From Gemmatimonadota bacterium (GTDB taxonomy: Bacteria; Gemmatimonadota; Gemmatimonadetes; Gemmatimonadales; Gemmatimonadaceae), in NCBI GenBank assembly GCA_031372565.1, contig JANMLN010000048.1:1-17942 (forward strand): a stretch of DNA of 17,942 bases, given 5' to 3'. The notes below the pieces were generated by a model. The model made no database searches. It was given only the letters and a program-made list of their open reading frames with translations, and had not been told where the DNA came from. The position numbers and the translations under genes are program-made. Positions 691 to 15,330 of this stretch are shown here, piece after piece (within the stretch, counting starts at the first letter, position 1; the number at the start of each line of letters is the position of its first letter).

Positions 691-2532
691 ATGGCTATCA
701 GGAACATCGCGATTATCGCGCACGTCGATCACGGCAAGACCACCCTCGTGGACAAGATGCTCCGGCAGGCCGGCGCCTTCCGCGAGAATCAGGTGGTGGA
801 AGAGCGAGTCATGGACTCGAACCCGCTCGAAAAGGAACGCGGGATCACCATTCTCGCCAAGAACACGTCCATCCGGTGGAAGGACACGAAGATCAATGTC
901 GTGGACACCCCGGGGCACGCCGACTTCGGCGGCGAAGTCGAGCGCATCCTGCGCATGGTCGATGGCGTGTTGCTCGTCGTCGATGCGTTCGATGGACCGA
1001 TGCCGCAGACGCGCTTCGTGCTGCGCAAGGCGCTCGAGCTGAACCGCACGCCGATCATCGTGATCAACAAGATCGACCGCCCCGGCGCCGATCCGCTCCG
1101 CGTGCACGACGAGGTGCTGTCGCTGTTCATCGAACTCGAGGCCAACGAGGCGCAGCTCGAAGCGCCCGTCGTCTACGCCTCGGCGCGCGAAGGGGTCGCG
1201 ACCATGGACATGGACGTGACGCCGGTGGACCTGGCGCCCCTCTTCGACGCGATCGTGCAGCATGTGCCGGCCCCGCCGATGGACGCGGCTGGTTCGTTCC
1301 AGATGCTCGTGTCCACGATCGACTACTCGCCGTACCTGGGCCGTCTGGGCATCGGGCGCATCGATCGCGGCACGGTCAACGTGGGCGACACGATCACCGA
1401 CCTCGGCGCCGATCCGGCCAAGCCGGCGGTGCGCGGACGCGTCGTCAAGCTGTTCGCCTTCGAGGGGCTCGAGCGTATCGAGGTCCAGACCGCGACCGCC
1501 GGCGAGATCGTGTCGCTGGCCGGCTTCGAGAAGGTCGAGATCGGCACGACGCTCACCGATCCCGAGAACCAGGAACGGTTGGCCGGCATCGCGGTCGAAG
1601 AGCCCACGATTTCGGTGGACTTCCTCGTCAACAACTCGACCTTCGCCGGCAAGGAAGGGAAGTTCGTGACGTCGCGCCAGCTGCGCGAGCGGCTGTTCAA
1701 GGAGCTGGAGCGCAACGTCGCGCTGCGTGTCGAGGAGACCGACACCACCGATTCGTGGAGCGTGAGCGGACGCGGCGAACTGCATCTCTCCATTCTCATG
1801 GAGACGATGCGGCGTGAAGGGTTCGAGTTCCAGGTGTCGCGTCCGCGCGTGATCACGCGCACGGGCGAGAACGGCGTGCGCGAGGAGCCCTACGAAGAGT
1901 TGGCGATCGACGTCCCCGAGGACTATCTGGGCGTCGTGTTCGAGAAGCTCGGGCCCCGCAAGGCGGAGCTGATCGAGATGAAGAATCCGGGGCAGGGGCT
2001 CGTGCGGCTCCTGTACAAGATTCCGGCGCGCGGCCTGTTCGGCTATCGCTCGGAGTTCCTGACCGACACGCGCGGCACCGGACTGATCCATCACCGGTTC
2101 CTCGAATACGGTGCCTGGGCCGGGCCGCTCGAGGGACGCCTGCGCGGAACGCTCGTGAGCATGGAAACCGGCGTGATCGTCGGGTTCGCCCTCAACAACC
2201 TGCAGGACCGGAGCACGCTGTTCGTGGCGCCGGGCGACGCGGTGTACGAGGGGATGATCATCGGGGAGAACGCACGTCCGGGCGACATGGACGTGAATCC
2301 CTGCAAGGAAAAGAAGCTCTCGAACATGCGCTCCAAGTCGGCCGACGAGCACATCCAGCTCGAGCCGCCACGGATCATGACCCTCGAAGCCGCCCTCGAG
2401 TACATCGAGGAGGATGAGCTGATCGAGATCACCCCGCAGAGCATCCGGCTGCGGAAGCGCACCCTGCTGGCTGGCGACCGGAAGAAGACCAACCGCGAGT
2501 CGAAGCGCGAACGCGAGGCGGCTGGCCGTTAA
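691..2532 (+). CDS. typA: Translational GTPase TypA/BipA (613 aa)
   Basis: [18 protein letters not shown] (G1), EKERGITI (G2), [14 protein letters not shown] (G3), NKID (G4), [10 protein letters not shown], and the BipA C-terminal motifs YEGMIIGEN and [11 protein letters not shown]. Confidence 0.99.
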
Positions 2533-2583
2533 CCTTTCGGCTCGTTAGGCTGTCAGACATTCGTACCGCACGAGAGCCGGGCA

Positions 2584-2613
2584 TTGACGCTGCGCAGGTG
2601 TGGCGAGTATATC
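2584..2613 (+). promoter_or_regulatory. Possible sigma70 promoter for the acidic-protein gene
   Basis: TTGACG (2584-2589), 18-nt spacer, TATATC (2608-2613); the -10 is imperfect. Confidence 0.4.
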
Positions 2614-2658
2614 GAAGCCAGCCTGCGTGTAGACTGACCAACCTTGAGGACCCTGATC

Positions 2659-2994
2659 ATGAGCCCCGAGTTCGCGCTGAGTGCCCCCTTCGCTGATGGG
2701 GTCACCGCGAACCTTCCGTTCCGCGCCGCGCCACGCGGTGACGAGGACGATTTTGAGGATGAGGACGTCGACGACGACCTCGACGACGACCTGGATGAAG
2801 ACGGTGAGTTCGACGATCCGGTGAAATTGGTCGAAGCGGACGACGACGACGAAGATGCCGAGGACGACGACGAGGATGAGGACGACCTCGACGACGACGA
2901 GTTCGACGATCTGGACGACGACGGCGTGGATCTGGACGACGAGTACGACGACTTCGAGGACCAGAAGGGTCCGGGTGTGGCCGGCGACGAGTAG
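2659..2994 (+). CDS. Highly acidic low-complexity hypothetical protein (111 aa)
   Basis: ATG 2659 with GAGGA SD at 2646-2650. About 57 of 111 residues are Asp/Glu (manual count). Mixed GAC/GAT/GAG/GAA codons argue for a coding sequence rather than a microsatellite. A strong hairpin follows. Confidence 0.75.
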   Translation: MSPEFALSAPFADGVTANLPFRAAPRGDEDDFEDEDVDDDLDDDLDEDGEFDDPVKLVEADDDDEDAEDDDEDEDDLDDDEFDDLDDDGVDLDDEYDDFEDQKGPGVAGDE

Positions 2995-3018
2995 CCCCCC
3001 CACTTCGCCATGAACCAG

Positions 3019-3061
3019 CGCGGGGCAGGATCCCATCCGGATCCTGCCCCGCGTGTCGTTT
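3019..3061. terminator. Intrinsic terminator hairpin, probably bidirectional
   Basis: Perfect 15-bp stem CGCGGGGCAGGATCC (3019-3033) / GGATCCTGCCCCGCG (3039-3053), 5-nt loop, followed by TGTCGTTT. It lies between convergent genes. Confidence 0.85.
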
Positions 3062-3088
3062 CGCCCTCCGTGCGTGCGGCTGGCGGTC

Positions 3089-3844
3089 CTAGGGGAGCTC
3101 CGGCGTCTGCGTGCGCAGCTGCACCGGCTCGGACTTCTTGCGCACCCGCAGGTTGATCATCTCGACCCCCATCGAGAACGCCATCGCGAAATAGGTATAG
3201 CCCTTCGGGATGTGCACCCCGAACGACTCGGCCACCAGATTGGTCCCGATCATCACGAGGAAGCTGAGCGCGAGCACCTTAATCGTCGGGTGACGATCCA
3301 CGAAGGCCGCAATCGCGCCCGAGAAGCCGAGCATGAAGGCGAGGGCGACGACGTTGGCGGCGATCATGATCGAGACCTGCGACACCATCCCGACGGCCGT
3401 GATGACCGAGTCGAGGGAGAAGACGATGTCGATGAGCATGATCTGGATGATCACCGCGCTGAAGGCCGGGGCCTTCTTCCCCGTGCCGGCACCGATCCCG
3501 GTGGTCTCGGGTCCTTCGAGCTTGGCGTGGATCTCGTGCGTGGCCTTGAAGATCAGGAAGAGGCCGCCGATGAGGAGCACGAGGTCGCGTCCAGACAGCT
3601 TGACCGAGCCGGCGACGAGCAGCGGCGCGGTGAGCGACACGAGCCAGCCGATGGACAACAGGAGCAGCACGCGGGTGCAGAATGCCGCGGCGAGGCCGAG
3701 CTTGCGGGCGCGATCGCGCTGGCTCTCGGGGAGCGCGCCCGCGAGAATCGAGATGAAGATGATGTTGTCGATGCCAAGGACGATCTCGAGCGCCGAGAGC
3801 GTCAGGAGGCCGAGCCAGATGTTGGGGTCGGCGAGGTTGGGCAT
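3089..3844 (-). CDS. TerC-family integral membrane protein (YgdQ-like, 251 aa)
   Basis: LEIVLGIDNIIFISIL, RDLVLLIGGLFLIFKATHEIH, QIMLIDIVFSLDSVITAVGM and HIPKGYTYFAMAFS motifs; multiple hydrophobic helices. Confidence 0.95.
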   Translation of the reverse strand: MPNLADPNIWLGLLTLSALEIVLGIDNIIFISILAGALPESQRDRARKLGLAAAFCTRVLLLLSIGWLVSLTAPLLVAGSVKLSGRDLVLLIGGLFLIFKATHEIHAKLEGPETTGIGAGTGKKAPAFSAVIIQIMLIDIVFSLDSVITAVGMVSQVSIMIAANVVALAFMLGFSGAIAAFVDRHPTIKVLALSFLVMIGTNLVAESFGVHIPKGYTYFAMAFSMGVEMINLRVRKKSEPVQLRTQTPELP

Positions 3845-3889
3845 GGGCAGCAGGGAGGGAGGTGCGCACGGGCCGGTGCGCGCAGATTG

Positions 3890-5104
3890 TCAGTCGGCGC
3901 GCAGCGCTTCGATCGGGTCGAGTCGCGCCGCTCGGCGCGCGGGAAGCACGCCAAAGATAAGCCCGGTGGCGATGGCCACCGCGACCGCGAGGAGGATGGA
4001 CCCGGGCGCGACGTCGGCGCTCCAGCCGAAGTTCTCGCGGATCTGCCACGCGGCAACGACGCCAGCCAGCACCCCCAGGCCGGCGCCGACGATGCAGAGG
4101 ACGATGGCCTCGATCAGGAACTGCATGAGGATCTCACGCTTCGTGGCCCCGAGCGCCTTGCGGACGCCGATTTCGCGGGTGCGCTCGGTGACGGCCACGA
4201 GCATGATGTTCATGATGCCGATGCCGCCGACCAGAAGGCTGACGCCAGCCACGCCGGAGAGGAGCATGGAGAAGGCGGCGTTGGTCTCGCTCAAGGTGGA
4301 GAGCATGTCGGCCTGATTGCGCAGGCGGAAGTCGTCCGGCGCGCTCGGGCGCAGCCGGTGGGATCGCCTGATGGCGCCCTGCACCTCGGCCATGGCGGCA
4401 TTGAGGGAATCTTCGGAGGACGCGAGCGCCCAGATGTCGTTGATCCGGTCGGTACCAAAGACGCGGGAGCGGCCGGTCGCGAACGGGATGAGAATCTGCT
4501 CGTCGCCGTCACCGAAGCCCGTGGTCCCCTTGGCCTCGAGGGCGCCAATGACGGTGAAGGTGAGGCCGTTGATACGGATCCGCTCGCCGATGAGCATGGC
4601 GGGGTCGTCGACCCCCAAGAGGGGGCCCGTGGAGCCGCCCAGCACGGCAACATTGCGGCGGGCGGCTTCGTCGGCGCGGTCGAGCATGCGTCCTGCGGCC
4701 AGCCGGAAGCCGCGCACCTGGAGGAAGTTGGGGAGCGTGCCGGTGATCTGGATGTTGGCGTTCCTGGCGCGCCACTGGACCTGCAAGGAGCGGTCCTGCT
4801 GCGGGTTGACGGCGCGCACGTTGTGCGAGCGTTCGAGGATCGCGTCCACGTCCTTCATGGTGAGCTTGACGGTGGACTGCGTATTGACGCCGCCGAAGTT
4901 GACGCGAGCGGGGTTGATCTGGAGGAGAGTGGTGCCGAGCTTGGCGATGCGCTCCTTGATGGCGTTGGCGGCACCGTTGCCCAGAGCCACGACGGCAATG
5001 ACTGCCCCGACGCCGATGATCATGCCGAGCATGGTGAGCCCGGAGCGCAGCTTGTTGGCGCGGAGTGCGTCGAGGGCGATGGCGACGGAGCTGGCGAGGG
5101 CCAT
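3890..5104 (-). CDS. MacB/FtsX-type ABC transporter permease (404 aa)
   Basis: ALRANKLRSGLTMLGMIIGVGAVI N-terminal helix, a large periplasmic domain, and VGGIGIMNIMLVAVTERTREIGVRKALGA...PARRAARLDPIEALR. Start set at ATG 5104 because the longer ORF runs into the tRNA promoter and gene. Confidence 0.95.
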   Translation of the reverse strand: MALASSVAIALDALRANKLRSGLTMLGMIIGVGAVIAVVALGNGAANAIKERIAKLGTTLLQINPARVNFGGVNTQSTVKLTMKDVDAILERSHNVRAVNPQQDRSLQVQWRARNANIQITGTLPNFLQVRGFRLAAGRMLDRADEAARRNVAVLGGSTGPLLGVDDPAMLIGERIRINGLTFTVIGALEAKGTTGFGDGDEQILIPFATGRSRVFGTDRINDIWALASSEDSLNAAMAEVQGAIRRSHRLRPSAPDDFRLRNQADMLSTLSETNAAFSMLLSGVAGVSLLVGGIGIMNIMLVAVTERTREIGVRKALGATKREILMQFLIEAIVLCIVGAGLGVLAGVVAAWQIRENFGWSADVAPGSILLAVAVAIATGLIFGVLPARRAARLDPIEALRAD

Positions 5105-5206
5105 GGAGCGGGTTCGGGGGCGGTGTCCGGCGCGTTGCTGTAAGGGTACGGGGAGGTAAGGGGAACCGTTCGTTGGCGGCGGCATAAGGCAAGCCCGTGC
5201 ATTGGC

Positions 5207-5235
5207 TTGAACCGCCCTGCCGAGGTGGTTAGAAT
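5207..5235 (+). promoter_or_regulatory. Sigma70 promoter of tRNA-Ile
   Basis: TTGAAC (5207-5212), 17-nt spacer, TAGAAT (5230-5235), 33 nt upstream of the tRNA. Confidence 0.8.
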
Positions 5236-5268
5236 AGGAGGCTTCCCCCGGGTTTGTGGGGGAGCGCA

Positions 5269-5342
<74 letters not shown>

Positions 5343-5350
5343 CTTGGAGC

Positions 5351-5398
5351 ACGTGCACGCCCCGCAGAGGCTCTACGCTTCTGCGGGGCGCACGTTTT
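5351..5398 (+). terminator. Intrinsic terminator after tRNA-Ile
   Basis: 14-bp stem CGCCCCGCAGAGGC (5358-5371) / GCTTCTGCGGGGCG (5377-5390) with one G-U pair, extendable by ACGTG/CACGT, followed by a short T-tract. Confidence 0.85.
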
Positions 5399-5612
5399 GG
5401 AGGACGCGGGTCCCGCCCACGACGGAGCGCTTCCTCCCACTGTCGGACATCGCCCCATCGTGCGATCACGAACCTGACGGGGACGGGGTACAGTACATGA
5501 GGCGTCCCGGCGATCGCGGCCAGCGCCCACCCGCGTCCGCTTGGCGGCCGTTTCCATAGCTCGCCGCCGCGGTTTCAGGATAGCGGACGTTCGTGAATCA
5601 GGGGCAGTCATC

Positions 5613-8600
5613 ATGACGCGCACGAAGGCGACGGGAGCGGCAACGGTTGTCGATCGGCTCGAAGCCGAGCCGGCGCGCGTCGACGCTGCCGTCCCGGGCG
5701 CTGCCGGGGCCGCGCCCGCCACCTCCCCGGTCGCGACCCAGGCCCCGGCGGTGATCGTCGTCGAGGCCACGCGGGAGACGATCCTCTCGGTCGACGACGC
5801 AACCCTGCACCTGTTCGGCTACGGGCGCACGGAACTGATCGGACAGCCGCTCGCCCTGTTGCTGAGCGGCCCGAAGGCGCAACGCAAGGACGGCACGGCG
5901 TTCGCCGCGAAGTGGGCCCGGAGCGCGATCACGCTCGGCGACGCCCCCTTGATCGTCGTCACCGTCTGCGAGGACTCGCACCGGGAGATGAGCGAGGCGC
6001 TGTACCAACTGTTGTTCGAGTCCAATCCCCTGCCGGCGTGGGTCATGGACTCGGCGACCGGGGCGTTCCTGTTCGTCAACGATGCCGCCCTGCGGGAATA
6101 CGGCTACACGCGCGCGGAGTTCCTCGGGCTGTCGGTCAGCGCCCTCCGCCTGCCCGACGAGGCGGCCGACATCGGGGAGTACCTGGCCACGCAACCGCCC
6201 GGGCCGTTCATCACGACGAGGCCGTGGCACCATCGCCGCAAGGACGGGAGCATCCTCGAGGTCCAGGTGCGCGGCGAGCGGATCATGCTCGATGGCCGCG
6301 CGGCGGTCCTGACCCTGATGGTGGACGCCGCGCGCGAGCACGCCATCGCGGAACTCCGGGACCGCGAGCGGCAGCTCGAGGAGGCGCAGGCGCTCGCGCA
6401 CGTCGGGAGCTGGGAGCTGGACATTCCGTCGGACCGGGCCACGTGGTCATCGGAATTGCGCCGCATGTTCGGCGTGCCCGCGCAATTCCCGGTCGGCGTC
6501 GATGTCCTGATGGAGCATGTGCATCCGGAGGATCGTGAGCGGGTCCGTCACCTCTACGATGCGTACCTGGCCCGGCAGATCCCCGTGCTCGAGTTCGAGT
6601 GCCGGATCATCGGTGCGAACGGTGCGGTGCACGAGCTCCGCAACCGGCATACGCTGACCCTGGGGACGGACGGGCGGCCGGTCCGGATGGCCGGCATCGT
6701 GCTCGACATCACGGTGCAACGCGAGGCCGAGCAGGCGCTCGCCGACAGCGAACGCCTGCACCGGATGCTGGTCGAGAACTCGTCGGACGTGGTGGTCGCG
6801 ACGACCGCAGAGGGCATGGTGCGCTACGTGTCGAGCTCGGTGACGCGCGTGCTCGGCCTCGACCCGGCGCAGATGCTGGGCCACATGGCGAGCGAGTTCG
6901 TGCACCCGGACGACGTTCCCCGGCTGGCGGAAGCTTTCGCGCGCATGGTGGCGGCGCCGGGAGTGCCGTTGCGGAACGAATACCGCCTGCAGCACCGCGA
7001 CGGGAGCTGGCGCACCATCGAGTGCGTCGCCCAGTCGTACGACCTGAAGGGGAGCACGTTCAAAGTCGTCGTCAATGGGCGCGACGTCACCGAACGTGCC
7101 GCCGCCGAGGCGCAGCAGCGGCTGCTGATGCGCGACCTGACCGCCGCGCGCCAGACGGCCGAAAACGCGACGCGGGCGAAGAGCGAATTCCTGGCCAACA
7201 TGAGCCATGAGATTCGGACGCCCATGAACGCGGTGCTGGGCCTCACCGAGCTGGTGCTCGACAGCGAGCTGACGCCGGAGCAGGCCCGGCACCTCGAGAT
7301 GGTGCGTGAGGCCGGCGATACGCTGCTCTCGCTCCTGAACGACATCCTCGACCTGTCGAAGATCGAGGCGGAGCACGTGGAGCTCGAGGCGATCCCGTTC
7401 GACCTCGTCGGGCTGGCGCATGCGGTGGCGAACCTCTCGGCGGTCGCGGCGAACAAGCGCGGCGTGGAACTGATTGTCGACTGCGCCCCCGACGTGCCGC
7501 GCCACGTGCGCGGGGACCCCACCCGGCTGCGCCAGATCCTCTCGAACCTGCTCGCGAATGCCGTGAAGTTCACGCACGAGGGCGAGGTGGTCATCTCCCT
7601 GCGGGTGGACGGACTCCGCGACGGCGTGGCGGCCGTGCGGTTTGCGGTGCGCGACACCGGGCTTGGCATTCCCCCGGACAAGCTGGACAGCATCTTCAGC
7701 GAGTTCGGCCAGGTGGATGCCTCGACGACCCGCCGCTACGGAGGCACCGGGCTCGGCCTGTCGATCGCCCGACGCCTGACGCGGCTGATGGGGGGCGACC
7801 TGACGGTCACGAGCGAGCTAGGCCGCGGGAGCGAGTTCAGTCTCACCCTGTCGCTGCCGGTGGAAGCGGCGCCGAAGGAACTGCCCGGGCCGACGCCCGT
7901 CCAGTTCGCCGACGTGCGGACCCTGGTGGTGGACGACAACGCCACCAACCGGCAGATCGTGCGCGGCATCATGGCGCGGGTCGGCGCCAGCGTCAGCGAG
8001 GCATCGAACGCCACCGACGCGCTCGCCGCGATGGAGCGCGCCGAGGCCGAGGGGCTCCCGCACGCGATCGTGATCCTGGACTCGCAGATGCCCGACCGCG
8101 ACGGCTGGAGCCTCGCGGCGGAGATCCGGCGCCATCCGAAATTGCAGGGCACGCGACTGCTCATGCTCGCGTCGGCGGGCGAGCGCGGCGACGGCGAGCG
8201 GTGCCGCGCGCTGGGCATCGACGGGTACCTGATCAAGCCGGTGTCGCGGAGTGACTTGGTCGAGGCGACGGCGTCGATCGTCGTCGGCAAGCGCGCGGTG
8301 GGCACGGTGGTGACGAGCCACGCCCTCGCCGAGACGCGCGCCCGGCTGCGCGTCCTCCTGGCCGAGGACAACGCCGTGAACCAGGAAGTGGCGGCAGCGA
8401 TGCTGCGCCGACGCGGGCACGACGTCACGGTCGTCGACAATGGCGCCCTCGCCGTGGCGGCGGCGGCGAAAGGCACCTTCGACGTCATCCTGATGGACAT
8501 TCACATGCCGGAGATGGACGGGTTCGCCGCCACGGCAGCGATCCGCGCCCTGCCCGGCGGCGCCCGGGTGCCGATCATCGCCCTCACCGCCGACGCGCTG

Positions 8601-9176
8601 ACCGGCGAGCGGGAGCGCTGCCTCGACGCCGGGATGAACGGCTATCTCTCGAAGCCGTTCAAGCCGACCGAGCTGTTCGCGATCGTCGAGGGGTGGGGGG
8701 CGCGACCCACGCGTACGCCCTCGAGCGTCGCGGCGGTGCCGGTGCCGGTGCCGGCGCCGGTGCCGGTGCCCGCGTCGGCTGCCCCGCCGGTGCTCGTGCC
8801 GGTTCCCGCGGCGGTACCGCCCCCGGTGGACCTCGCGGCGTTCCGTTCGGAGATGCGGAGTGCCGGCGCCGAGGACGCGGTGGACTCCATTCTCAACACC
8901 TTCCTGACGAGCGTGCCCGTGCGGAGTGCCGCGATCTCGGCGGCGATCGCCGCCGGCCGCGCCGCCGACATCGCGGTGGCCGCGCATGCCTTCCGTGGAG
9001 CGGCCGGGTCGGTGGGTGCCCACGCACTGGCCACCCTTCTGCTGGCGACGGAGCTGGCCGGAAAGGAGGGACGCGTCGGCGATGCGGTTGCGCTGGGGGC
9101 AAGCGTCCAGCGGGAAGCGGACACGGTGGCCGCGTACCTGCACGACTGCGGCGTTGGAGTGCCAGCCCATGCTTGA
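5613..9176 (+). CDS. Cytoplasmic hybrid sensor histidine kinase: 4 PAS (first shortened)-HisKA-HATPase-REC-REC-Hpt (about 1187 aa)
   Basis: H-box FLANMSHEIRTPMN (His codon 7206), N-box QILSNLLANAVKFT, G boxes DTGLGI and GGTGLGL, REC1 (VVDDN...ILDSQMP...KP), REC2 (LAEDN...LMDIHMP...KP), Hpt AAHAFRGAA (His codon 8985). No obvious TM helix. ATG 5613 follows AGGGG. Confidence 0.95.
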   Translation: MTRTKATGAATVVDRLEAEPARVDAAVPGAAGAAPATSPVATQAPAVIVVEATRETILSVDDATLHLFGYGRTELIGQPLALLLSGPKAQRKDGTAFAAKWARSAITLGDAPLIVVTVCEDSHREMSEALYQLLFESNPLPAWVMDSATGAFLFVNDAALREYGYTRAEFLGLSVSALRLPDEAADIGEYLATQPPGPFITTRPWHHRRKDGSILEVQVRGERIMLDGRAAVLTLMVDAAREHAIAELRDRERQLEEAQALAHVGSWELDIPSDRATWSSELRRMFGVPAQFPVGVDVLMEHVHPEDRERVRHLYDAYLARQIPVLEFECRIIGANGAVHELRNRHTLTLGTDGRPVRMAGIVLDITVQREAEQALADSERLHRMLVENSSDVVVATTAEGMVRYVSSSVTRVLGLDPAQMLGHMASEFVHPDDVPRLAEAFARMVAAPGVPLRNEYRLQHRDGSWRTIECVAQSYDLKGSTFKVVVNGRDVTERAAAEAQQRLLMRDLTAARQTAENATRAKSEFLANMSHEIRTPMNAVLGLTELVLDSELTPEQARHLEMVREAGDTLLSLLNDILDLSKIEAEHVELEAIPFDLVGLAHAVANLSAVAANKRGVELIVDCAPDVPRHVRGDPTRLRQILSNLLANAVKFTHEGEVVISLRVDGLRDGVAAVRFAVRDTGLGIPPDKLDSIFSEFGQVDASTTRRYGGTGLGLSIARRLTRLMGGDLTVTSELGRGSEFSLTLSLPVEAAPKELPGPTPVQFADVRTLVVDDNATNRQIVRGIMARVGASVSEASNATDALAAMERAEAEGLPHAIVILDSQMPDRDGWSLAAEIRRHPKLQGTRLLMLASAGERGDGERCRALGIDGYLIKPVSRSDLVEATASIVVGKRAVGTVVTSHALAETRARLRVLLAEDNAVNQEVAAAMLRRRGHDVTVVDNGALAVAAAAKGTFDVILMDIHMPEMDGFAATAAIRALPGGARVPIIALTADALTGERERCLDAGMNGYLSKPFKPTELFAIVEGWGARPTRTPSSVAAVPVPVPAPVPVPASAAPPVLVPVPAAVPPPVDLAAFRSEMRSAGAEDAVDSILNTFLTSVPVRSAAISAAIAAGRAADIAVAAHAFRGAAGSVGAHALATLLLATELAGKEGRVGDAVALGASVQREADTVAAYLHDCGVGVPAHA
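8736..8771 (+). repeat. In-frame hexamer tandem repeat (GTGCCG)x6, imperfect, encoding VPVPVPAPVPVP
   Basis: Six 6-nt units, two with single substitutions, in the linker between REC2 and Hpt. Confidence 0.8.
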
Positions 9177-11259
9177 CGCGCCCCCCCGCGGCCACTGGCT
9201 GCTTGGCGTCCCCGGGACGGCCGGTGCCGGCGTGATCAACGCGGCGACGCCGATTGCCGACGCTTGGCGCCGCGCGGCGAGCGCCAGCAAGCTGAGCCAG
9301 GCAGAGCTCGCGGCCAAGGTCGCGGAGCACTACCACCTCAAGGTCGCGAACCTGGCGTCATCGCAGAAGCACGCGACCGACCTGATCCCCGAGCGCCTGG
9401 CGCGCGGCCGGCTGGCCTTCGCCCTGCGCGAGACGAACGATCAGATCGTGGTCGCCGTGGCCGACCCGACCGACATGGAGACCGAGCATCTGTTGGCGTT
9501 CGCGTCGGGGCGCGACGCGGTGTTCGAGATCGCCCCGCCCGACGCGATCAGCGACGCGCTCGACGGGCGCTACGCCCCCGACCGGGCCGTGGAGCGGCTC
9601 CTCAGCCGCGTGGGCGCCGAGATGGCCGATGCGGTGAGCATCGTGGAGGAGCACGAGCCCGAACCGGTCGACACGCACGAAGCGGAGTCGGCGCCGATCA
9701 TCAAGCTCACCAACGTCATCCTCGGCGACGCGGTGCGGGCGCGGGCGAGCGACATCCACGTGGAGCCCGCCGAGGGCAGCGGTCGCGTGCGCTTCCGCGT
9801 GGACGGCGTGATGACGCCGTACACGCGGGTGTCGATGGCGATCCTGAACCGGGTCGTGTCGTGCCTCAAGATCATGGGCAGGCTCGATATCGCTGACCGC
9901 CTCCGGCCGCAGGACGGCCGGGCGCGGATCTTCGTCGAGGGCCGGGCGATCGACCTCCGGCTCTCGACGGTGCCGACGCGCGACTCCGAGAAGGCGGTGG
10001 TGCGCCTGCTCGACCCGAACAATGCCCGGCGGCTGGAGGACATGTCGCTGACGACGGCGGAGCTCGTGCCCTTCCGGTCGCTCCTCGATCGCCGGGACGG
10101 CATCGTGCTGGTCACCGGCCCCACCGGCTCGGGAAAGACGACGCTGCTCTACGCCGCGCTGCGCGAGATGCCGACGGGCGAGCTGAACGTGATGACGGTG
10201 GAAGACCCGATCGAATACGAGCTCGCCGGGCTGACGCAGATCCAGGTCGCGCCCAAGCGCGACGTGACCTTCGCGACGGCGCTCCGGTCGATCCTGCGCC
10301 AGGACCCCGACGTGATCTTCATCGGCGAGATCCGCGACGCCGAGACGGCGAAGATCGCCGTGCAGGCGAGCCTGACCGGCCACCTGGTTCTGGCGTCGCT
10401 GCACACGAACGACGCGGTCGGCGTCGTGGGGCGGTTGGCGGATCTGGGCGTCGCGCGGGGGGAGATCGCGGCCACGTTGCGCGGCGCCACCGCGCAGCGC
10501 CTCGTGCGCAAGGTGTGCGCGGCGTGCGTACAGCCGATCACGGGACCGCTCCTGGAGATCGAGACGCTCCTCGCCGCGCGATACGGGGTGCAACCGGTGG
10601 TGCGGACGGTCGGGTGCGCGCGGTGTGCGCACACCGGCTTCTACGGTCGCGTGCCGCTACTCGAAGTGCTCATCTCGAGTCCCGCGTTCGAGCTGCGGGT
10701 GATCGAGGGGGGGACGACCTCGCAGCTGCAGGCGGCGGCCGTCGCCGCCGGGATGCGCCCGCTCCACGCGGCTGCGGTGGAGCGGGTCCGTAGTGGCGAG
10801 ACCACGCTCGAGGAGATCGACCGCGAGCTCGGCGAGGCGGATGCCGGGGGCGAGACGTCGGTGCGCGAGCCGACGGCGGCACTCCCGCACGTGCTGGTGG
10901 CGGATGACGATGCCGTGACGCGGGCGAAGGCCCGCGCGCTGCTCACGGCGAACGGCTACCGCGTCTCGGAGGCGGCCGACGGCGAGGAGGCGCTCGCCCT
11001 GATCGAGAAGGACCGTGACGTGGCCCTCGTGGTGCTCGACCTCTCGATGCCGAACGTCGGTGGTCTCGAGGTGCTGAAGCGGCTGCGGGGCGCCATCGCA
11101 ACGAGCGCGCTCCCCGTGGTGGTGCTCACGGGCGCCACCGACAGCCAGTCGGAGGTGGACGTGATGGATGCGGGTGCGGACGACTATGTGCGCAAACCGC
11201 TCGTCGCCGAACGGTTCCTCTCGCGCATCAAGGCCGTGCTCAGGCGCAGCGCGTCGTAA
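9169..11259 (+). CDS. PilB/GspE-family secretion/pilus assembly ATPase with C-terminal response-regulator receiver domain (696 aa)
   Basis: ASDIHVEP, RFRVDG, PQDGR, Walker A GPTGSGKT (10117-10140), TVEDPIEY, LRQDPDVIFIGEIRD, TGHLVLASLHTN, tetracysteine CAAC...CARC. REC domain from about 10888 (VADDD, VLDLSMP, VLTG, ADDYVRKP). ATG 9169 has a GGAG SD and overlaps the kinase by 8 nt. Confidence 0.93.
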   Translation: MLDAPPRGHWLLGVPGTAGAGVINAATPIADAWRRAASASKLSQAELAAKVAEHYHLKVANLASSQKHATDLIPERLARGRLAFALRETNDQIVVAVADPTDMETEHLLAFASGRDAVFEIAPPDAISDALDGRYAPDRAVERLLSRVGAEMADAVSIVEEHEPEPVDTHEAESAPIIKLTNVILGDAVRARASDIHVEPAEGSGRVRFRVDGVMTPYTRVSMAILNRVVSCLKIMGRLDIADRLRPQDGRARIFVEGRAIDLRLSTVPTRDSEKAVVRLLDPNNARRLEDMSLTTAELVPFRSLLDRRDGIVLVTGPTGSGKTTLLYAALREMPTGELNVMTVEDPIEYELAGLTQIQVAPKRDVTFATALRSILRQDPDVIFIGEIRDAETAKIAVQASLTGHLVLASLHTNDAVGVVGRLADLGVARGEIAATLRGATAQRLVRKVCAACVQPITGPLLEIETLLAARYGVQPVVRTVGCARCAHTGFYGRVPLLEVLISSPAFELRVIEGGTTSQLQAAAVAAGMRPLHAAAVERVRSGETTLEEIDRELGEADAGGETSVREPTAALPHVLVADDDAVTRAKARALLTANGYRVSEAADGEEALALIEKDRDVALVVLDLSMPNVGGLEVLKRLRGAIATSALPVVVLTGATDSQSEVDVMDAGADDYVRKPLVAERFLSRIKAVLRRSAS

Positions 11260-11401
11260 GGTGCGAGGGCCGCTGCGGGATGACTCGCCCGTCCCGCGAC
11301 CGCGACTGCCGGTCGTCGCGCGCTCAGCTGCACCACCATTGGGGTACGCCATCGTGGCGATAACGGCGGCGGTCGCCCCGCCATAACCTTCCGGAAACCA
11401 G

Positions 11402-12040
11402 ATGCATACCCTCGCCGATGCCACCTTCACCGCGCTGCTCGCGGACCGCTTCCCGGCGGGGATGCTGGACGCGCATCCCAGCAGCGTCTTCGGCATCTGG
11501 CCCGACGGACGCCTGGCGTACCTCAACCCGGGCTGGTACGAGTTCGCCATCGCCAACGGCGGCTACCCGGCGATCGAGAATCAGTGGGACATCGGCGCCA
11601 ACTACCTCGATGCCGTCACGCCGCCCCTGCGGCCGTTCTACCGCGCCCTGCTCGCGCGCGCGCCGGAGGTGGGAGCGGCGCAGCATCCGCTCTCGCACGA
11701 ATACGAGTGCTCGAGCGCCGACATGTTCCGGAAGTACAACATGCAGGTGTATGCGTTGCCGAGGCAGGCGGGCTGGCTGGTCGTCAATTCGCTGGTCGTC
11801 GAGCAGCCGCACGACCCGGAGGAGCGACCGGCCCACGCCACCAGCGACGCCGAGTACCGGGATGTGGCCGGGATCGTGCACCAGTGCGCGCATTGCCGAC
11901 GCGTGTTGCACCAAGGGCGCGAGCCGCGATGGGACTGGGTGCCCGCATGGGTGACGCATCCGGCGCGCGACACCAGCCACGACGTCTGTCCGGTGTGCTA
12001 CGCCTTCTACTATCCGCAGGTCGCCAGCTCGCTCCGCTGA
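11402..12040 (+). CDS. Hypothetical protein: PAS-like domain plus C-terminal CxxC...HxxCxxC zinc-ribbon-like motif (212 aa)
   Basis: N-part VFGIWPDGRLAYLNPGWYEFA...GANYLD...EYEC has a PAS-like pattern. C-part QCAHCRRV...WDWV...SHDVCPVC resembles the ICxxCKKIR...SHGICPxC tail of signalling proteins. Confidence 0.75.
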   Translation: MHTLADATFTALLADRFPAGMLDAHPSSVFGIWPDGRLAYLNPGWYEFAIANGGYPAIENQWDIGANYLDAVTPPLRPFYRALLARAPEVGAAQHPLSHEYECSSADMFRKYNMQVYALPRQAGWLVVNSLVVEQPHDPEERPAHATSDAEYRDVAGIVHQCAHCRRVLHQGREPRWDWVPAWVTHPARDTSHDVCPVCYAFYYPQVASSLR

Positions 12041-12225
12041 GCGCTCGCCGGTCGCCGCTCCCCCTCACGGCCGTGCCTCGCGACGGGGCTAGGCCCTTCG
12101 TGTCATGACGCGCGACGGCGGGAGACGGTAGCTATCGATCCTCGGCAAGATGGTCGTGCATTGCCTGACCGCTGCTTCCGCCGAGGGGCCGGCGGCCGGG
12201 CACCTGCTCCTTGGAGCCCCCGATC

Positions 12226-12753
12226 GTGGAGAAGGTCCGCGCCGCCCCGCCCCCACTCCTCGCCGCCGGTTGGCGCGCTTTGCGCAGGGCGCGCGCCGGC
12301 CGGGGGTTCTCGATGGTGGAGATGGTCGTCGTGCTGGTCATCGTCGGCATCATGATCGCGCTGGCGCTGCCGCGCGTACAACGCCAAACGAACCTCGCGC
12401 GCGTGAACAACGCCCAGTCCGTCGTCGCGGGCGACCTGCGGCGGGCGGCGACCTTGGCGGCGCAGCGGCGGCGGCCGATGGAGGTCCGGTGGGACGCGAC
12501 CAGCGCGCGCCTCGTCGTCCGGCAGCTCGGGACGACGACGGAGCTGGTGCACCGCGCCCTCGGCGCGCGGAGCGAATACCGGCTGCAGGTGTCGGTCGCC
12601 CCCGACTCGGCCATCATCCTCCCGAGCGGCCTCGCGAACGCCTTCTGTGTGCGCCTGCAGGGCGGTAACGCGCCGGATACCGTGGTGCGGCGCGTGCGCA
12701 TCACCACGAGCGGGCAGGCGCGGCTCCTGGCTCCCGGCGAGGCTTGCCCGTGA
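12226..12753 (+). CDS. Type IV minor pilin / pseudopilin, FimT/FimU/GspH-like
   Basis: Class III signal RRARAGRG|FSMVEMVVVLVIVGIMIALALP with Glu5 (Phe codon 12307), DLRRAATLAAQRRRP helix, C-terminal Cys pair. Start uncertain: GTG 12226 (GGAG 9 nt upstream) chosen over TTG 12211 or TTG 12280. Confidence 0.85.
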   Translation: MEKVRAAPPPLLAAGWRALRRARAGRGFSMVEMVVVLVIVGIMIALALPRVQRQTNLARVNNAQSVVAGDLRRAATLAAQRRRPMEVRWDATSARLVVRQLGTTTELVHRALGARSEYRLQVSVAPDSAIILPSGLANAFCVRLQGGNAPDTVVRRVRITTSGQARLLAPGEACP

Positions 12754-13199
12754 CGCGGCGGGCCGGGTTCTCGCTGGTCGAGATCATCGTCGGCATGGTC
12801 CTGTTCAGCGTCGTGCTGCTCGGGCTCGGCGGACTGCAGATCATCGAATCCCGGAAGGTGATGCGGGAGTCCGTACTCGTGCGCGCCACGGCGATGCTGA
12901 CGGCGCGCACCGGGGGATGGCAGGTGGCGGACTTCGGCTCGCTGCCGGCGCTGGGCATCACCGGCAGCTGCATGATCGACACCACCTCGGCGCCCGGCGG
13001 CTTCCGGTTCTTCCGCTGCGACACGGTCACCGTGGTCAATGCGGACGAACGGACGATCTCGGTGAACGTGCTCGCCCCGCTGTCACAGAAGCCGGGGGCG
13101 GTGACCAGGATACCGGAGGACTCGACCCTCGTCGCCGCGCAGTTCGTCCGGCTGAACGCCAGACTGCAACGATCGCGCCAGCCCGCGACGCCCTTCTGA
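12750..13199 (+). CDS. Type IV minor pilin, PilV/GspI-like (149 aa)
   Basis: MTRRAG|FSLVEIIVGMVLFSVVLLGLGGL prepilin motif; GTGA overlap with the upstream stop; two Cys. Confidence 0.85.
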   Translation: MTRRAGFSLVEIIVGMVLFSVVLLGLGGLQIIESRKVMRESVLVRATAMLTARTGGWQVADFGSLPALGITGSCMIDTTSAPGGFRFFRCDTVTVVNADERTISVNVLAPLSQKPGAVTRIPEDSTLVAAQFVRLNARLQRSRQPATPF

Positions 13200-14077
13200 T
13201 GCGACGCCGCGGCGTCACCCTCGTGGAGATCGTCATCTCCCTGCTCATCGGCGCCGTGTTCGGCGTCTCGATGATCAAGCTGCTCGCGAGCCAGAATCGG
13301 TTCATGGCGCGTGAGGCGATGGGTCGGGAAGCGCGCGCCACGGTCTCGAGCGGCCTCGGCGCGCTCGGGGCTGACCTCCGCATGGTGCAGTACGACCCGG
13401 GGAGTTCCTCCGGGCTGGTCGTGAGTGCCTCGGAGCCGAGCGACAGCGCGTTCACCGCGCGCCTTCCGGTGGCGTTTGCCATCGCCTGCGACGCGGCCAC
13501 GCTGGTGGTGCCGCCCTACGACTCCACACGGCTGACGTTCGGCGGCGTCGGCGCCACGAGTTTCGACGGGTACGCCGTGCGCACGGCCGCCGGCGGCTAC
13601 AGCTACCAGACGGCCAGCGCGGGGTGGCTCACGCTGCCATCGAGCGCGACCGCCTGTGCCTCGCCGTCGCCCGCGATCTCCGTGGTGGCGGGGGCCGGCC
13701 TGCGCGTGGCGAGGTCGTCGGTCGCGCTGGTGCCCGCCCCGGCGCGCGGCGGGGTGGTCATGCTCTGGGTGCGCGTGCGGTACCGGATCGGCGCCTCGAC
13801 CAGCTACACCTCGCCGCCGCGCCGCGCGTTGTTCGTCACCCTCGGGACGTCGGGAGTCGAGCGCGAGATGCTCGCGCCGCTCGACACCGGGGCGCGCTTC
13901 CGCTACTTCGACGCCACGGGCATGGACTCGGCGCGCACGAGTCCCCCGGCCGACGTGACCACGATTCGCGGCATCCAGGTCGTCCTGCCAGGGTTGAGTC
14001 CGGCGGTGGCGCAGGCCCGTTCGAGCCCTGAGTCGGCGCGCCTTGTGACGGCATTCTTCTTCCGGAACGCGCCATGA
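13199..14077 (+). CDS. Type IV minor pilin, PilW/GspJ-like (292 aa)
   Basis: MRRRG|VTLVEIVISLLIGAVFG prepilin motif, LGADLRM helix end, C-terminal FRYFD...IRGIQVVL...FFFRN pattern; TGATG overlap with the upstream gene. Confidence 0.85.
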   Translation: MRRRGVTLVEIVISLLIGAVFGVSMIKLLASQNRFMAREAMGREARATVSSGLGALGADLRMVQYDPGSSSGLVVSASEPSDSAFTARLPVAFAIACDAATLVVPPYDSTRLTFGGVGATSFDGYAVRTAAGGYSYQTASAGWLTLPSSATACASPSPAISVVAGAGLRVARSSVALVPAPARGGVVMLWVRVRYRIGASTSYTSPPRRALFVTLGTSGVEREMLAPLDTGARFRYFDATGMDSARTSPPADVTTIRGIQVVLPGLSPAVAQARSSPESARLVTAFFFRNAP

Positions 14078-15330
14078 TGACGGCGCGTCTCCGGCCGCAG
14101 GCACGGCGTCGGAACGGTGTCGTCTTTCCGATGGTGCTGATCCTCATGGCCGTGCTGTCGGCGGGCGCGGCGGGCGCCTTCACGTACCTGACGATGGAGA
14201 CGGCGTCCACCGGCAGTCGGCAAGCGGCGCAGGATGCCCGCCTGGTGGCCGAGGACGGGCTGGAGCGTTTTGTCCACGACATACCGACCGTCGCCCGCGA
14301 CTCGATGGTGCCGGCCAGCGGGCCGATCCTCGTCGCCGCCGACTCGAGCGTGACGACCGTCCTCCTGCTCTCGGTCTCCGACACGCGCCAGCGGCAACTC
14401 TCGAGCACCGCCCCCGTGCCCGACACGGCCGAGGTGAAGGCGTACCTCCTGCGCCGCGCGAGCTCGGCGAGCGACTCCTCGCTGTGGCTGTTCAAGGTGC
14501 GCGGGGTGGCCGCGCGCGCCCGGCCGGCCGGAGGGACCAAGGCCGAGCGCACCATCGCCGTGTACGCCTGGTTCGCTCCCGGCCGGATGAACGTGATTGG
14601 CGGATGGGTGAGCCTGACCGGCGCCGACCGCACGGGAAATGCCGGGAGCTTCAGCGGAGTGGACGCCTGTGCCAAGGACACCGCACGGTTCGGGATCGTG
14701 GTGCCCAACGACCCCGGTGCGGGGTTCACGGGCTCGCTGGCCGGCATCACGGGGAAGGGGATCGACGAGACGCGCAGCATTGCCACGCTGTCGGCGCAGT
14801 TGAACATCGACTGGGCTTCCCTCAGCACCGGCAGCGGCATCACGCCGGCGTTCGTGATCGATCCGTCGGCCGGCATCAGCTCGCTCCCCTCGGCGATGTG
14901 CGCCAGGTTCCACGTCGACACGGGCTACGCGCCCACGATCCTGGTCAAGAACGCCGGGGGCGCGGAGTACAACTACGCGAACCTCTGCAGCGGCGCGACC
15001 AAGAATGACGACAAACGCGGTCTGCTGATCGTGACCGGGGACCTCGGGATGTCGGGCTCGTCGGGCGGGAAGTGGACCGGCGTGCTCCTGATCGGCGAGC
15101 GGTTCAGTTCGAACGGCACGCAGGACGTGAGCGGCGTCGTGGTGAGCGGGTTGCGCGCGACGGTCGATGCGACGTTCCGCACCCCTTCGGTCCTCAACGC
15201 CGAAAGCTCCGTGCTGAAGGGCTCGAAGCAGTACACGTACGACAGCTGCGCGGTGGGCCGGGCGCTGCGAGGGTATGCCGGCCTGCGGCCCATGCAGAAC
15301 ACGTACACCGACCAATGGCCGACGTACTGA
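14074..15330 (+). CDS. Large PilX/GspK-like minor pilin (418 aa)
   Basis: RRRNG|VVFPMVLILMAVLS prepilin-like leader lacking Glu5 (as is typical of PilX/GspK), ARLVAEDGLE motif, Gly-rich beta-type C-terminal region (GLLIVTGDL...WTGVLLIG); ATGA overlap. Confidence 0.8.
   Translation: MMTARLRPQARRRNGVVFPMVLILMAVLSAGAAGAFTYLTMETASTGSRQAAQDARLVAEDGLERFVHDIPTVARDSMVPASGPILVAADSSVTTVLLLSVSDTRQRQLSSTAPVPDTAEVKAYLLRRASSASDSSLWLFKVRGVAARARPAGGTKAERTIAVYAWFAPGRMNVIGGWVSLTGADRTGNAGSFSGVDACAKDTARFGIVVPNDPGAGFTGSLAGITGKGIDETRSIATLSAQLNIDWASLSTGSGITPAFVIDPSAGISSLPSAMCARFHVDTGYAPTILVKNAGGAEYNYANLCSGATKNDDKRGLLIVTGDLGMSGSSGGKWTGVLLIGERFSSNGTQDVSGVVVSGLRATVDATFRTPSVLNAESSVLKGSKQYTYDSCAVGRALRGYAGLRPMQNTYTDQWPTY

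Follow-up and report, generated by a model that had tools for sequence, protein, structure and literature searches.

Known regulators of the motors of type IV pili and type II secretion systems are cyclic di-GMP (c-di-GMP), adaptor proteins and separate CheY-like proteins. PilG and PilH of the Pil-Chp system, for example, are stand-alone receivers that act on pilus motors. Here we analyse a locus of a Gemmatimonadota bacterium in which the gene of a hybrid histidine kinase ending in a histidine phosphotransfer (Hpt) domain overlaps that of a PilB/GspE-type ATPase carrying a receiver (REC) domain of its own at the C-terminus. The window, that is, the whole stretch of DNA analysed, is contig C54 in its full length of 17,942 bp and belongs to a metagenome-assembled genome (MAG) of 4.44 Mb (completeness 95.85%, contamination 2.01%). 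We propose, with a probability of roughly 0.6, that a His-Asp-His-Asp phosphorelay ends on the ATPase itself and gates its ATPase activity or assembly.

Comparison with described systems

The PilB structures from Myxococcus (PDB identifier 3jc8) and Geobacter (5tsg, 5zfr), and PilF from Thermus (6f8l), contain N1, N2 and C-terminal ATPase domains with Walker A and B motifs, Asp and His boxes and a Cys4 site, a plan that the window ATPase shares; a PDB sequence search matches it to PilB structures with E-values of 1e-104 to 1e-92 over aa 42-557. It differs from PilB in its C-terminal receiver, in having no c-di-GMP motif and in having no adjacent pilT or pilC. With GspE/EpsE (PDB identifiers 1p9r, 4ksr, 4pht) it has the core ATPase and the N1 domain in common, whereas no GspF, GspL or secretin lies near it and the GspE-GspF-secretin cluster of the genome is on another contig (C189). 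The MshE-type c-di-GMP ATPases (PMC5013675) belong to the same overall family, and the window ATPase likewise has a Pfam MshEN match; however, this match covers the N1/MshEN_C part only, and a receiver stands as the regulatory input instead of the c-di-GMP motif. In PMC10333796 the tandem motif of MshE is given as RLGxx(L/V/I)(L/V/I)xxG(L/V/I)(L/V/I)xxxxLxxxLxxQ (24 residues). Control by c-di-GMP (MshEN), by PilZ-FimX and by chemosensory systems is described for these motors in PMC10333796, PMC5013675 and PMC7288161.

Kinases of the TorS/ArcB/BarA type have the HisKA-HATPase-REC-Hpt layout and H1-D1-H2-D2 logic of the window kinase, which differs from them in its two receivers and soluble multi-PAS input, and whose presumed D2 would belong to an ATPase instead of a transcription factor. 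NtrC, NtrC1 and DctD are AAA+ sigma-54 activators with an N-terminal receiver, the phosphorylation of which decides ring assembly and firing, with transcription as the output. They belong to a different superfamily from the window ATPase, which has its receiver at the C-terminus and no Sigma54_activat domain (Pfam), and the likeness would thus be an analogy, that of a receiver-gated ring ATPase. Closer in target are DrdR, a REC-REC protein of Xanthomonas that binds PilB and PilT and raises the ATPase activity of both (PMC13507683), and the PATAN-REC regulators of Synechocystis, which interact with the type IV pilus motor (bioRxiv 10.1101/2021.06.11.447907). In these cases, as in PilG/PilH, a stand-alone receiver acts directly on the PilB or PilT motor and not on transcription; the window receiver, in contrast, is covalently fused and is predicted to be fed by an Hpt relay and not by a CheA-type kinase.

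Fusions of receivers with MshEN domains and motor ATPases have also been catalogued. MshEN domains associate with receivers according to Wang et al. 2016 (PMC5013675), whose Supplementary Table 4 has REC-MshEN-T2SSE (for example Gmet_3473 of Geobacter metallireducens) and MshEN-REC but no MshEN-T2SSE-REC. The former, to which the table assigns no function, resembles the window ATPase in joining a two-component receiver to a PilB/GspE-type ATPase, and differs in that the receiver is N-terminal and the proteins come from beta-, gamma- and delta-proteobacteria, whereas the window receiver (aa 575-687) follows the core. A full-text search found no literature on Gmet_3473, and full-text literature searches, whose coverage leaves out subscription journals, found in titles and abstracts no functional study of a receiver-fused PilB/GspE ATPase. 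Automatic JGI names read 'PilB-like protein/ActR/RegA family', and the architecture is thus already visible in databases.

Domain architecture of the kinase and the ATPase

The two genes and their domains, all on the plus strand, are as follows.

5613-9176, plus strand: hybrid kinase, 1187 aa
5790..7100, plus strand: PAS sensor region of three to four PAS folds, boundaries approximate (PAS_9, PAS_3, PAS, PAS_4 and PAS_8 matches at about aa 130-496)
7176..7856, plus strand: kinase core (HisKA aa 522-587, HATPase_c aa 634-748)
7920..8687, plus strand: two kinase receivers (Response_reg, two stretches; start of the first receiver approximate)
8889..9128, plus strand: Hpt domain (aa 1093-1172; six-frame match; Pfam 29.4 bits against a cut-off of 24.6)
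9169..9176, plus strand: kinase/ATPase overlap ATGCTTGA, 8 nt (ATPase ATG 9169-9171, kinase TGA 9174-9176)
9169-11259, plus strand: ATPase-receiver, 696 aa
9367..9585, plus strand: N1/MshEN_C-type domain (aa 67-139; 44.7 bits, Pfam MshEN)
9679..10824, plus strand: T2SSE ATPase core (aa 171-552; 391.5 bits)
10891..11229, plus strand: ATPase receiver domain (aa 575-687; Response_reg, 88.8 bits)

The kinase open reading frame (ORF) spans 5541..9176, and the ATG at 5613 yields the 1187-aa protein, in which Pfam finds the order PAS region, HisKA (73.3 bits), HATPase_c (108.5 bits), REC, REC and C-terminal Hpt. The H-box HEIRTP begins at aa 532 (nt 7206-7223), Response_reg scores 155.9 bits over its two stretches (best at aa 914-1025) with the receiver Asp residues in LDSQMP (aa 822-827, nt 8076-8093) and MDIHMP (aa 961-966, nt 8493-8510), and the Hpt His lies in HAFRG (aa 1125, nt 8985-8987) and is invariant in the 11 aligned Hpt domains that adjoin such ATPases. 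The protein thus has the H-box His, the HATPase_c domain, the receiver Asp residues and the Hpt domain with its conserved His that define a hybrid kinase. Its best NCBIfam models are TorS, BarA and ArcB, all with scores below the equivalog cut-offs. No clear membrane segment was found, no 19-residue stretch exceeding a Kyte-Doolittle value of 1.5, and a soluble kinase of this kind would fit a cytoplasmic sensor.

The periodicity of G+C at the third codon position (GC3) marks both genes as coding, with the frame shifting near 9170, and a GGAG lies about 10 nt 5' of the ATPase ATG; the 8-nt overlap points to translational coupling of the two genes. Pfam places the domains of the ATPase in the order MshEN (N1)-T2SSE-REC. 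The T2SSE (PF00437) score is far above the gathering cut-off of 24.9 bits and the match covers profile positions 2-370 of 370. Its motifs are those of a PilB/GspE extension-type ATPase: GPTGSGKT (aa 317-324, nt 10117-10140) as Walker A, GEIRD (aa 386-390) as the Asp box/Walker B, HTND (aa 412-415) as the His box, and CAAC (aa 450-453, nt 10516-10527) with CARC (aa 483-486, nt 10615-10626) as the Cys4 metal site. An acidic linker of about 20 residues (aa 553-574) leads to the receiver, in which ADDD (aa 578-581, nt 10900-10911), Asp624 (GAC, 11038-11040), LTG (653-655) and RKP (675-677) supply the acidic pocket, D624, T654 and K676 expected of a receiver of the Response_reg family (PF00072) that could be phosphorylated. 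Modelling of a complex between the ATPase body (aa 40-556) and its own receiver (aa 568-696), with the ATPase-family alignment as input for both, gave no verdict either way (score 0.00). No further Response_reg was found among the other ORFs scanned in the window. The initial annotation had described this architecture (an Hpt-ending kinase that overlaps by 8 nt a complete PilB/GspE-type ATPase fused to an intact receiver, the only response regulator in the window), and Pfam and motifs bear it out on each of these points.

Conservation and distribution of the receiver-fused ATPases

The receiver-fused architecture is widespread. PF00072 and PF00437 occur together in 119 of the best 120 clusters of a large protein database; the exception is a 570-aa fragment, and the named sources of these clusters are Gemmatimonadaceae, Gemmatimonadales and Gemmatimonadetes. 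In an alignment of 116 relatives from these clusters (53-73% identity), Asp580, Asp624, Lys676, Pro677, all four Cys residues and the Walker A stretch G317-T325 with the exception of S321 are invariant (116/116), and at least 90% of the sequences retain S321, Thr654 and the flanking acidic residues. Purifying selection therefore maintains the receiver as a domain that can be phosphorylated and the ATPase as a working enzyme.

We sampled 151 genomes of the phylum, two of them unpublished. The clade of the window ATPase (clade A), including an offshoot with a decayed receiver (group B), is present in 15 of these. In a sister type, represented in the same genome on contig C162, some 130 residues of Pro-rich linker separate the receiver from the ATPase:

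L062:652-3489, minus strand: C162-type ATPase of the same genome; further C162-type loci are L031-L041

Its receiver is highly conserved (63-84% identity). At 63% identity or more it was found in 83 of the 151 genomes, including the unpublished G057, or in 82 of 149 without the two unpublished ones, and in all 71 genomes of one family-level group. Most of these matches lie in open frames of about 740-810 aa beside ATPase matches. Another 15 loci were inspected, and all 15 have a receiver behind the ATPase on the same strand. In the genome of the window, the C162-type gene has no kinase beside it. An origin of the fusion in gene calling or a frameshift was considered and rejected, in that all 36 reconstructed related genes are open frames of 678-1145 aa and the receiver is in frame behind the ATPase in every alignment row (in one row after frame correction).

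The final tree topology was obtained with FastTree and clade support from a quick IQ-TREE search, in which clade A has an SH-aLRT of 100. In the FastTree phylogeny of the ATPase core all receiver-fused types fall together, to the exclusion of the two ATPases of the same genome that have no receiver, a grouping that is weak because these are the only two outgroups. T2SSE together with Response_reg, irrespective of their order, was also seen among language-model look-alikes, in clusters with Thermodesulfobacteriota and Elusimicrobiota as the commonest phyla. The notion of a rare architecture has therefore to be given up, since the T2SSE-REC combination is the rule in large parts of Gemmatimonadota and the form with an N-terminal receiver was catalogued in 2016; the window ATPase is an ordinary member of a large conserved family.

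Other motor ATPases of the same genome

The genome of the window encodes five full-length PilB/GspE-type ATPases, of which three (C54, C185 and C162) have a C-terminal REC and no adjoining platform gene. The ATPase on C158 is a canonical PilB, which adjoins a PilT-like gene and PilC and keeps both copies of the c-di-GMP-binding MshEN_N motif, and that on C189 lies in a cluster with GspF, a secretin and pilin-like genes. Among the 38 ATPases compared, the c-di-GMP tandem motif was found in one, the canonical PilB on C158; a regular-expression search for the 24-residue tandem motif had no match in the window ATPase, and the 66 aa before its N1 domain hold no MshEN_N c-di-GMP motif. The contrast with c-di-GMP control drawn in the initial annotation can thus be seen within a single genome, in which the MshEN_N motif is kept by the canonical PilB and missing from its receiver-fused paralogues, and this fits a regulatory swap in which the receiver would have replaced the c-di-GMP input.

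Contig C185 carries a second pair, made up of a PAS-HisKA-HATPase-REC-REC-Hpt kinase upstream of an MshEN-T2SSE-REC ATPase:

L061:8475-15119, minus strand: second kinase/ATPase pair, on C185, two genes about 750 nt apart

The two pairs are diverged paralogues, with identities of 42% for the ATPases and 40% for the kinases. We also note that the C185 ATPase, as read from its sequence, has lost all four Cys residues of the metal site. Five Hpt matches were found in the genome, two of which adjoin the two clade-A ATPases on C54 and C185.

Gene neighbourhood of related ATPases

The neighbourhoods of 27 clade A/B loci were compared, 18 from the genome search and nine from a search of contigs with query-specific peptide patterns. 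The latter gave 80 loci, of which 66 were left out as core-only matches (aa ~165-552), mostly ordinary GspE of other phyla. Two loci whose contigs begin inside the ATPase (L067, L074) and one ATPase without a receiver (L072) were dropped, and two from MAGs labelled as other phyla (L077, L079) were kept apart.

An adjacent gene encodes an Hpt domain in 19 of the 27 loci. It lies at the C-terminus of a hybrid kinase directly upstream in the window, L042, L014 (cut by the contig end), L043, L044, L045, L050, L056, L061, L066 and L071; in L076 a REC-Hpt gene is directly upstream of the ATPase and is preceded by a kinase with its own Hpt; and in L053, L055, L068, L069 (by translation only), L070, L073 and L075 a small stand-alone Hpt gene comes next downstream, in most cases with a stand-alone receiver gene behind it. 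In 17 of the 27 loci a histidine kinase gene adjoins the ATPase or is separated from it by a single gene, and by ORF coordinates the kinase-ATPase junction falls within about 10 nt in L014, L045, L050, L056 and L071. In L079, from a MAG labelled Acidobacteriota, an Hpt gene is directly upstream of the ATPase-REC gene, with a pilin-like gene and a hybrid kinase beside it on the opposite strand. Beyond the kinase and the ATPase, tblastn searches with the downstream proteins of the window against 20 related loci found no conserved synteny. The co-occurrence of receiver-fused ATPases with Hpt-containing kinases in related genomes, which the initial annotation had left to be looked for, was thus found, and its wiring of the kinase Hpt to the ATPase receiver gains good comparative support from this linkage, from the two of five Hpt domains of the genome that stand beside clade-A ATPases, and from the invariance of the receiver Asp and the Hpt His.

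An alternative is that adjacency reflects co-expression only, the Hpt serving a regulator elsewhere and the ATPase receiver being fed by another kinase or by acetyl phosphate. Hybrid kinases with an Hpt domain often have distant partners, as in ArcB- and BarA-type systems, and an adjacent Hpt is missing from some loci (see below). However, the genes in the window overlap by 8 nt, the pairing recurs, with the genes variously ordered, in 19 of the 27 loci, and two paralogous kinase/ATPase pairs occur in a genome with only five Hpt domains, and we regard this alternative as very improbable.

Side observations from other loci include L077:5800-9366 (plus strand; from a MAG labelled Burkholderiales), which encodes a 1189-aa MshEN-T2SSE-REC-TPR protein beside a cyclase-AAA_16 protein with no kinase, and L063:7826-10540 and L064:7884-10607 (both plus strand), which encode MshEN-T2SSE-degenerate REC-GAF proteins of about 905 aa beside a Crp-type regulator.

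Proposed phosphorelay

In the mechanism that we propose, the soluble multi-PAS kinase would sense an intracellular cue and autophosphorylate at the H-box His; the phosphate would pass to one of the kinase's own two receivers and from there to the His of its C-terminal Hpt domain, and would finally reach Asp624 of the ATPase-tethered receiver, a loading through Hpt that we infer from linkage. Phosphorylation would then switch the motor post-translationally, most likely either through release of autoinhibition or through changed ring assembly or platform docking. Two models support the proposed gating of the ATPase by its phosphorylated receiver, the NtrC-type ring ATPases, which are controlled by receiver phosphorylation, and the stand-alone receivers that act on PilB. 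Domains, motifs, gene overlap, conservation and neighbourhood are observed here, whereas the direction of transfer, the effect on the ATPase and the filament it would serve belong to the proposal. Having no platform gene of its own, the ATPase would probably work on one of the two PilC/GspF machines of the genome, possibly with the minor pilins encoded downstream.

A wider and rather speculative extension, which we consider doubtful, is that Gemmatimonadota use signal-gated interchangeable motors. REC-fused PilB-like ATPases, each with an insulated relay of its own (this genome has two such pairs), would compete for one or two platforms, phosphorylation would pick the motor that docks, and motor-linked minor pilins would set the filament tip, all beside a canonical PilB responsive to c-di-GMP.

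Observations that weigh against the proposed relay

Several observations weigh against a relay that ends on the ATPase of a pilus motor. Gene neighbourhood is a measure of linkage and not of the direction of transfer. No Hpt adjoins the ATPase in eight of the 27 loci (L046, L047, L048, L049, L051, L052, L054 and L078), of which L051 and L052 are near-identical to each other; L046 has MacB upstream and its contig ends about 70 nt after the ATPase, L047 has a hybrid kinase without Hpt directly downstream, and L078 has an MHYT kinase-REC upstream. Moreover, the assignment of C54, C185 and C162 to the same genome depends on binning and on their similar G+C of 0.69-0.70, in a MAG with 2% contamination. 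As an observation in its own right, L049:6934-7863 (plus strand; G116:C26) encodes a REC-GGDEF diguanylate cyclase directly upstream of the ATPase and no kinase, though this ATPase clade is without the c-di-GMP motif.

The order of genes in some relatives raises the alternative that the receiver on the ATPase serves as an intermediate or a branch point of the relay or as a phosphate sink, the true output being another receiver protein and the ATPase being modulated at most. In a split version of the system (L068, L069, L070, L073 and L075), the ATPase-REC gene is followed by an Hpt gene and then by a stand-alone REC gene, in which case the ATPase receiver could be the intermediate station, and since the CHASE3 kinase of L068 carries no receiver, that of the ATPase is the sole candidate for the first Asp there. 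L054, L055, L059 and L060 likewise have a stand-alone REC gene after the ATPase gene. The window kinase, in contrast, already has two receivers and an Hpt, with no other receiver gene among the ORFs scanned, and the same layout, again with no other receiver in the scanned flanks, is found in L042, L044, L045, L050, L056, L066 and L061; L071 has such a kinase too, but with a stand-alone REC gene on the opposite strand just downstream of the ATPase. For the window we therefore regard this alternative as quite unlikely. One of the split loci, L073:3544-8848 (plus strand), has two tandem ATPase genes, the first with a partial receiver match only and the second with a full one, before its Hpt and receiver genes.

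Group B, which nests inside clade A in the FastTree phylogeny, has a decayed receiver in which the acidic pocket reads NPDP, the acceptor Asp is replaced by Glu, and the Thr and Lys are lost:

L053:7976-10036, minus strand: group B ATPase, decayed receiver
L054:7934-10084, minus strand: group B ATPase, decayed receiver
L055:7844-9988, minus strand: group B ATPase, decayed receiver

Its flanks contain a CHASE3 hybrid kinase, together with an RCC1-repeat gene in two of three loci, an Hpt gene in two of three and a stand-alone receiver in two of three (L054, L055). Thus, group B keeps relay genes despite its decayed receiver, and phosphorylation of the ATPase may not be the only way in which the relay acts. 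Such variants, together with the degenerate REC-GAF type (L063, L064) and the tandem of L073, show that the ties between relay and ATPase outlast the fusion, and in some lineages the relay may work through a separate receiver protein.

The filament that the ATPase may serve is a weaker part of the proposal. Downstream of the ATPase, at 12211-15330 on the plus strand, lie four overlapping pilin-like genes:

12211-12753, plus strand: pilin-like gene 1, GspH-like, with GFSMVE
12744-13199, plus strand: pilin-like gene 2, with GFSLVE
~13181-14077, plus strand: pilin-like gene 3, with GVTLVE
14074-15330, plus strand: pilin-like gene 4, PilX-like by its N-terminus in our reading

The first is weakly GspH-like (40.8 bits against an NCBIfam cut-off of 80), three of the N-termini are class-III signals, and the set looks like one of minor pilins or pseudopilins. 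A simple scan found no intrinsic terminators in 5200-12400, and the two intergenic stretches that follow the ATPase gene have folding z-scores of -0.8 and -0.7. Within the fetched flanks, however, pilin-like N-termini occur in only three of 29 loci (the window, L044 and L079). The ATPase scores 443.7 bits with the PilB equivalog TIGR02538 (cut-off 675.65) and 488 bits with the GspE equivalog TIGR02533 (its best NCBIfam model; cut-off 630.25), and falls short of both. There is no T2SSF (PilC/GspF) match on C54, the matches in the genome being on C158 and C189 only.

It could therefore be argued that the ATPase has left pilus or secretion work for another target under signal control, with the pilin genes its neighbours by chance. 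The scores below both equivalog cut-offs and the scarcity of pilin-like genes, the other neighbours being unrelated housekeeping or transport genes, agree with this view, as does the presence of three receiver-fused ATPases in a genome with no more than two platform genes (on C158 and C189) and two secretins (on C106 and C189). Against this, strong selection has preserved the N1 domain, the N2/CTD core, all the catalytic motifs and the Cys4 site that characterises PilB/GspE, the best solved relatives in the PDB sequence search are PilB and GspE (E-values of 1e-104 to 1e-98), and the four pilin-like genes begin less than 1 kb behind the ATPase gene on the same strand, no significant hairpin separating them from it. 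We consider such a departure from filament work unlikely. The four downstream pilin-like genes and the intact N1 domain make a filament role plausible; the terms pilus motor and pilus extension used in the initial annotation nevertheless do not stand as written, given that no platform gene is nearby, that pilins are near in three of 29 loci and that the PilB and GspE scores are below cut-off, and an output in pilus extension is plausible but weak.

A 212-aa protein lies between the ATPase and the pilin-like genes. Its front is PAS-like, as judged from language-model look-alikes, and its tail is rich in Cys and His (CAHC ... CPVC). The look-alike clusters are hypothetical proteins of about 200 aa from Acidobacteriota, Pseudomonadota and Myxococcota, 10-19% of which carry PAS_4. 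It is not conserved beside the ATPase elsewhere and thus belongs to the unit by position only.

Remaining genes of the contig

Gene order on the contig, which has a G+C of about 70%, was established from GC3 periodicity and Pfam. The remaining features are listed below.

691-2532, plus strand: BipA/TypA (GC3 and Pfam)
2644-2994, plus strand: Asp/Glu-rich ORF, 116 aa
3089-3844, minus strand: TerC (GC3 phase and Pfam)
3890-5275, minus strand: MacB/FtsX-type permease (GC3 phase and Pfam)
5269-5343, plus strand: tRNA-Ile (anticodon GAT), with a strong hairpin 3' of the tRNA
11402-12040, plus strand: family-less 212-aa protein, no Pfam or NCBIfam match
after the pilin-like genes, last in order: ferredoxin and pyridine-nucleotide-disulphide oxidoreductase

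The ORF at 2644-2994 (plus strand) consists of nearly nothing but runs of Asp and Glu, with G+C at codon position 2 down to 0.08 and no family match, and the long ORFs at 2545-3036 and 2553-3011 on the opposite strand are probably its shadows. A 696-aa plus-strand ORF at 3053-5143 was rejected as spurious, as the GC3 phase and Pfam place TerC and MacB/FtsX on the minus strand there. MacB/FtsX permeases also neighbour related ATPases in L046, L053-L055, L068-L070, L073 and L075. The listed MacB ORF, which extends to 5275, overlaps the tRNA by a few bases, and its true start is therefore probably further in. A hairpin at 5351-5398 after the tRNA-Ile (-41.8 kcal/mol, z -7.2) is followed by UUUU. 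The sigma-70-like site at 5207-5235, the sole promoter-like site found, was rejected as the promoter of the kinase, as it precedes the tRNA gene; the start of the kinase operon must thus be beyond about 5400. The contig stretch is present in four DNA sequencing runs, all from one freshwater-sediment study, and no RNA sequencing run containing it is listed.

Significance of the receiver-fused motor family

To the known family the window adds a genome in which two paralogous pairs of relay and motor stand beside a canonical PilB of the c-di-GMP type, and a rare adjacent set of minor pilins. The finding bears on how a phosphorylation signal physically reaches a motor hexamer, and the receiver-on-motor fusion with its adjoining kinase is a minimal two-protein system for the study of phosphotransfer, ATPase rate and ring assembly, for which the relatives with decayed receivers and split genes are natural controls. 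The arrangement of a kinase beside an ATPase-REC gene is common in the phylum, which suggests direct control of the motor by phosphorylation, and the whole phylum seems to rely on this receiver-fused family of motor ATPases.

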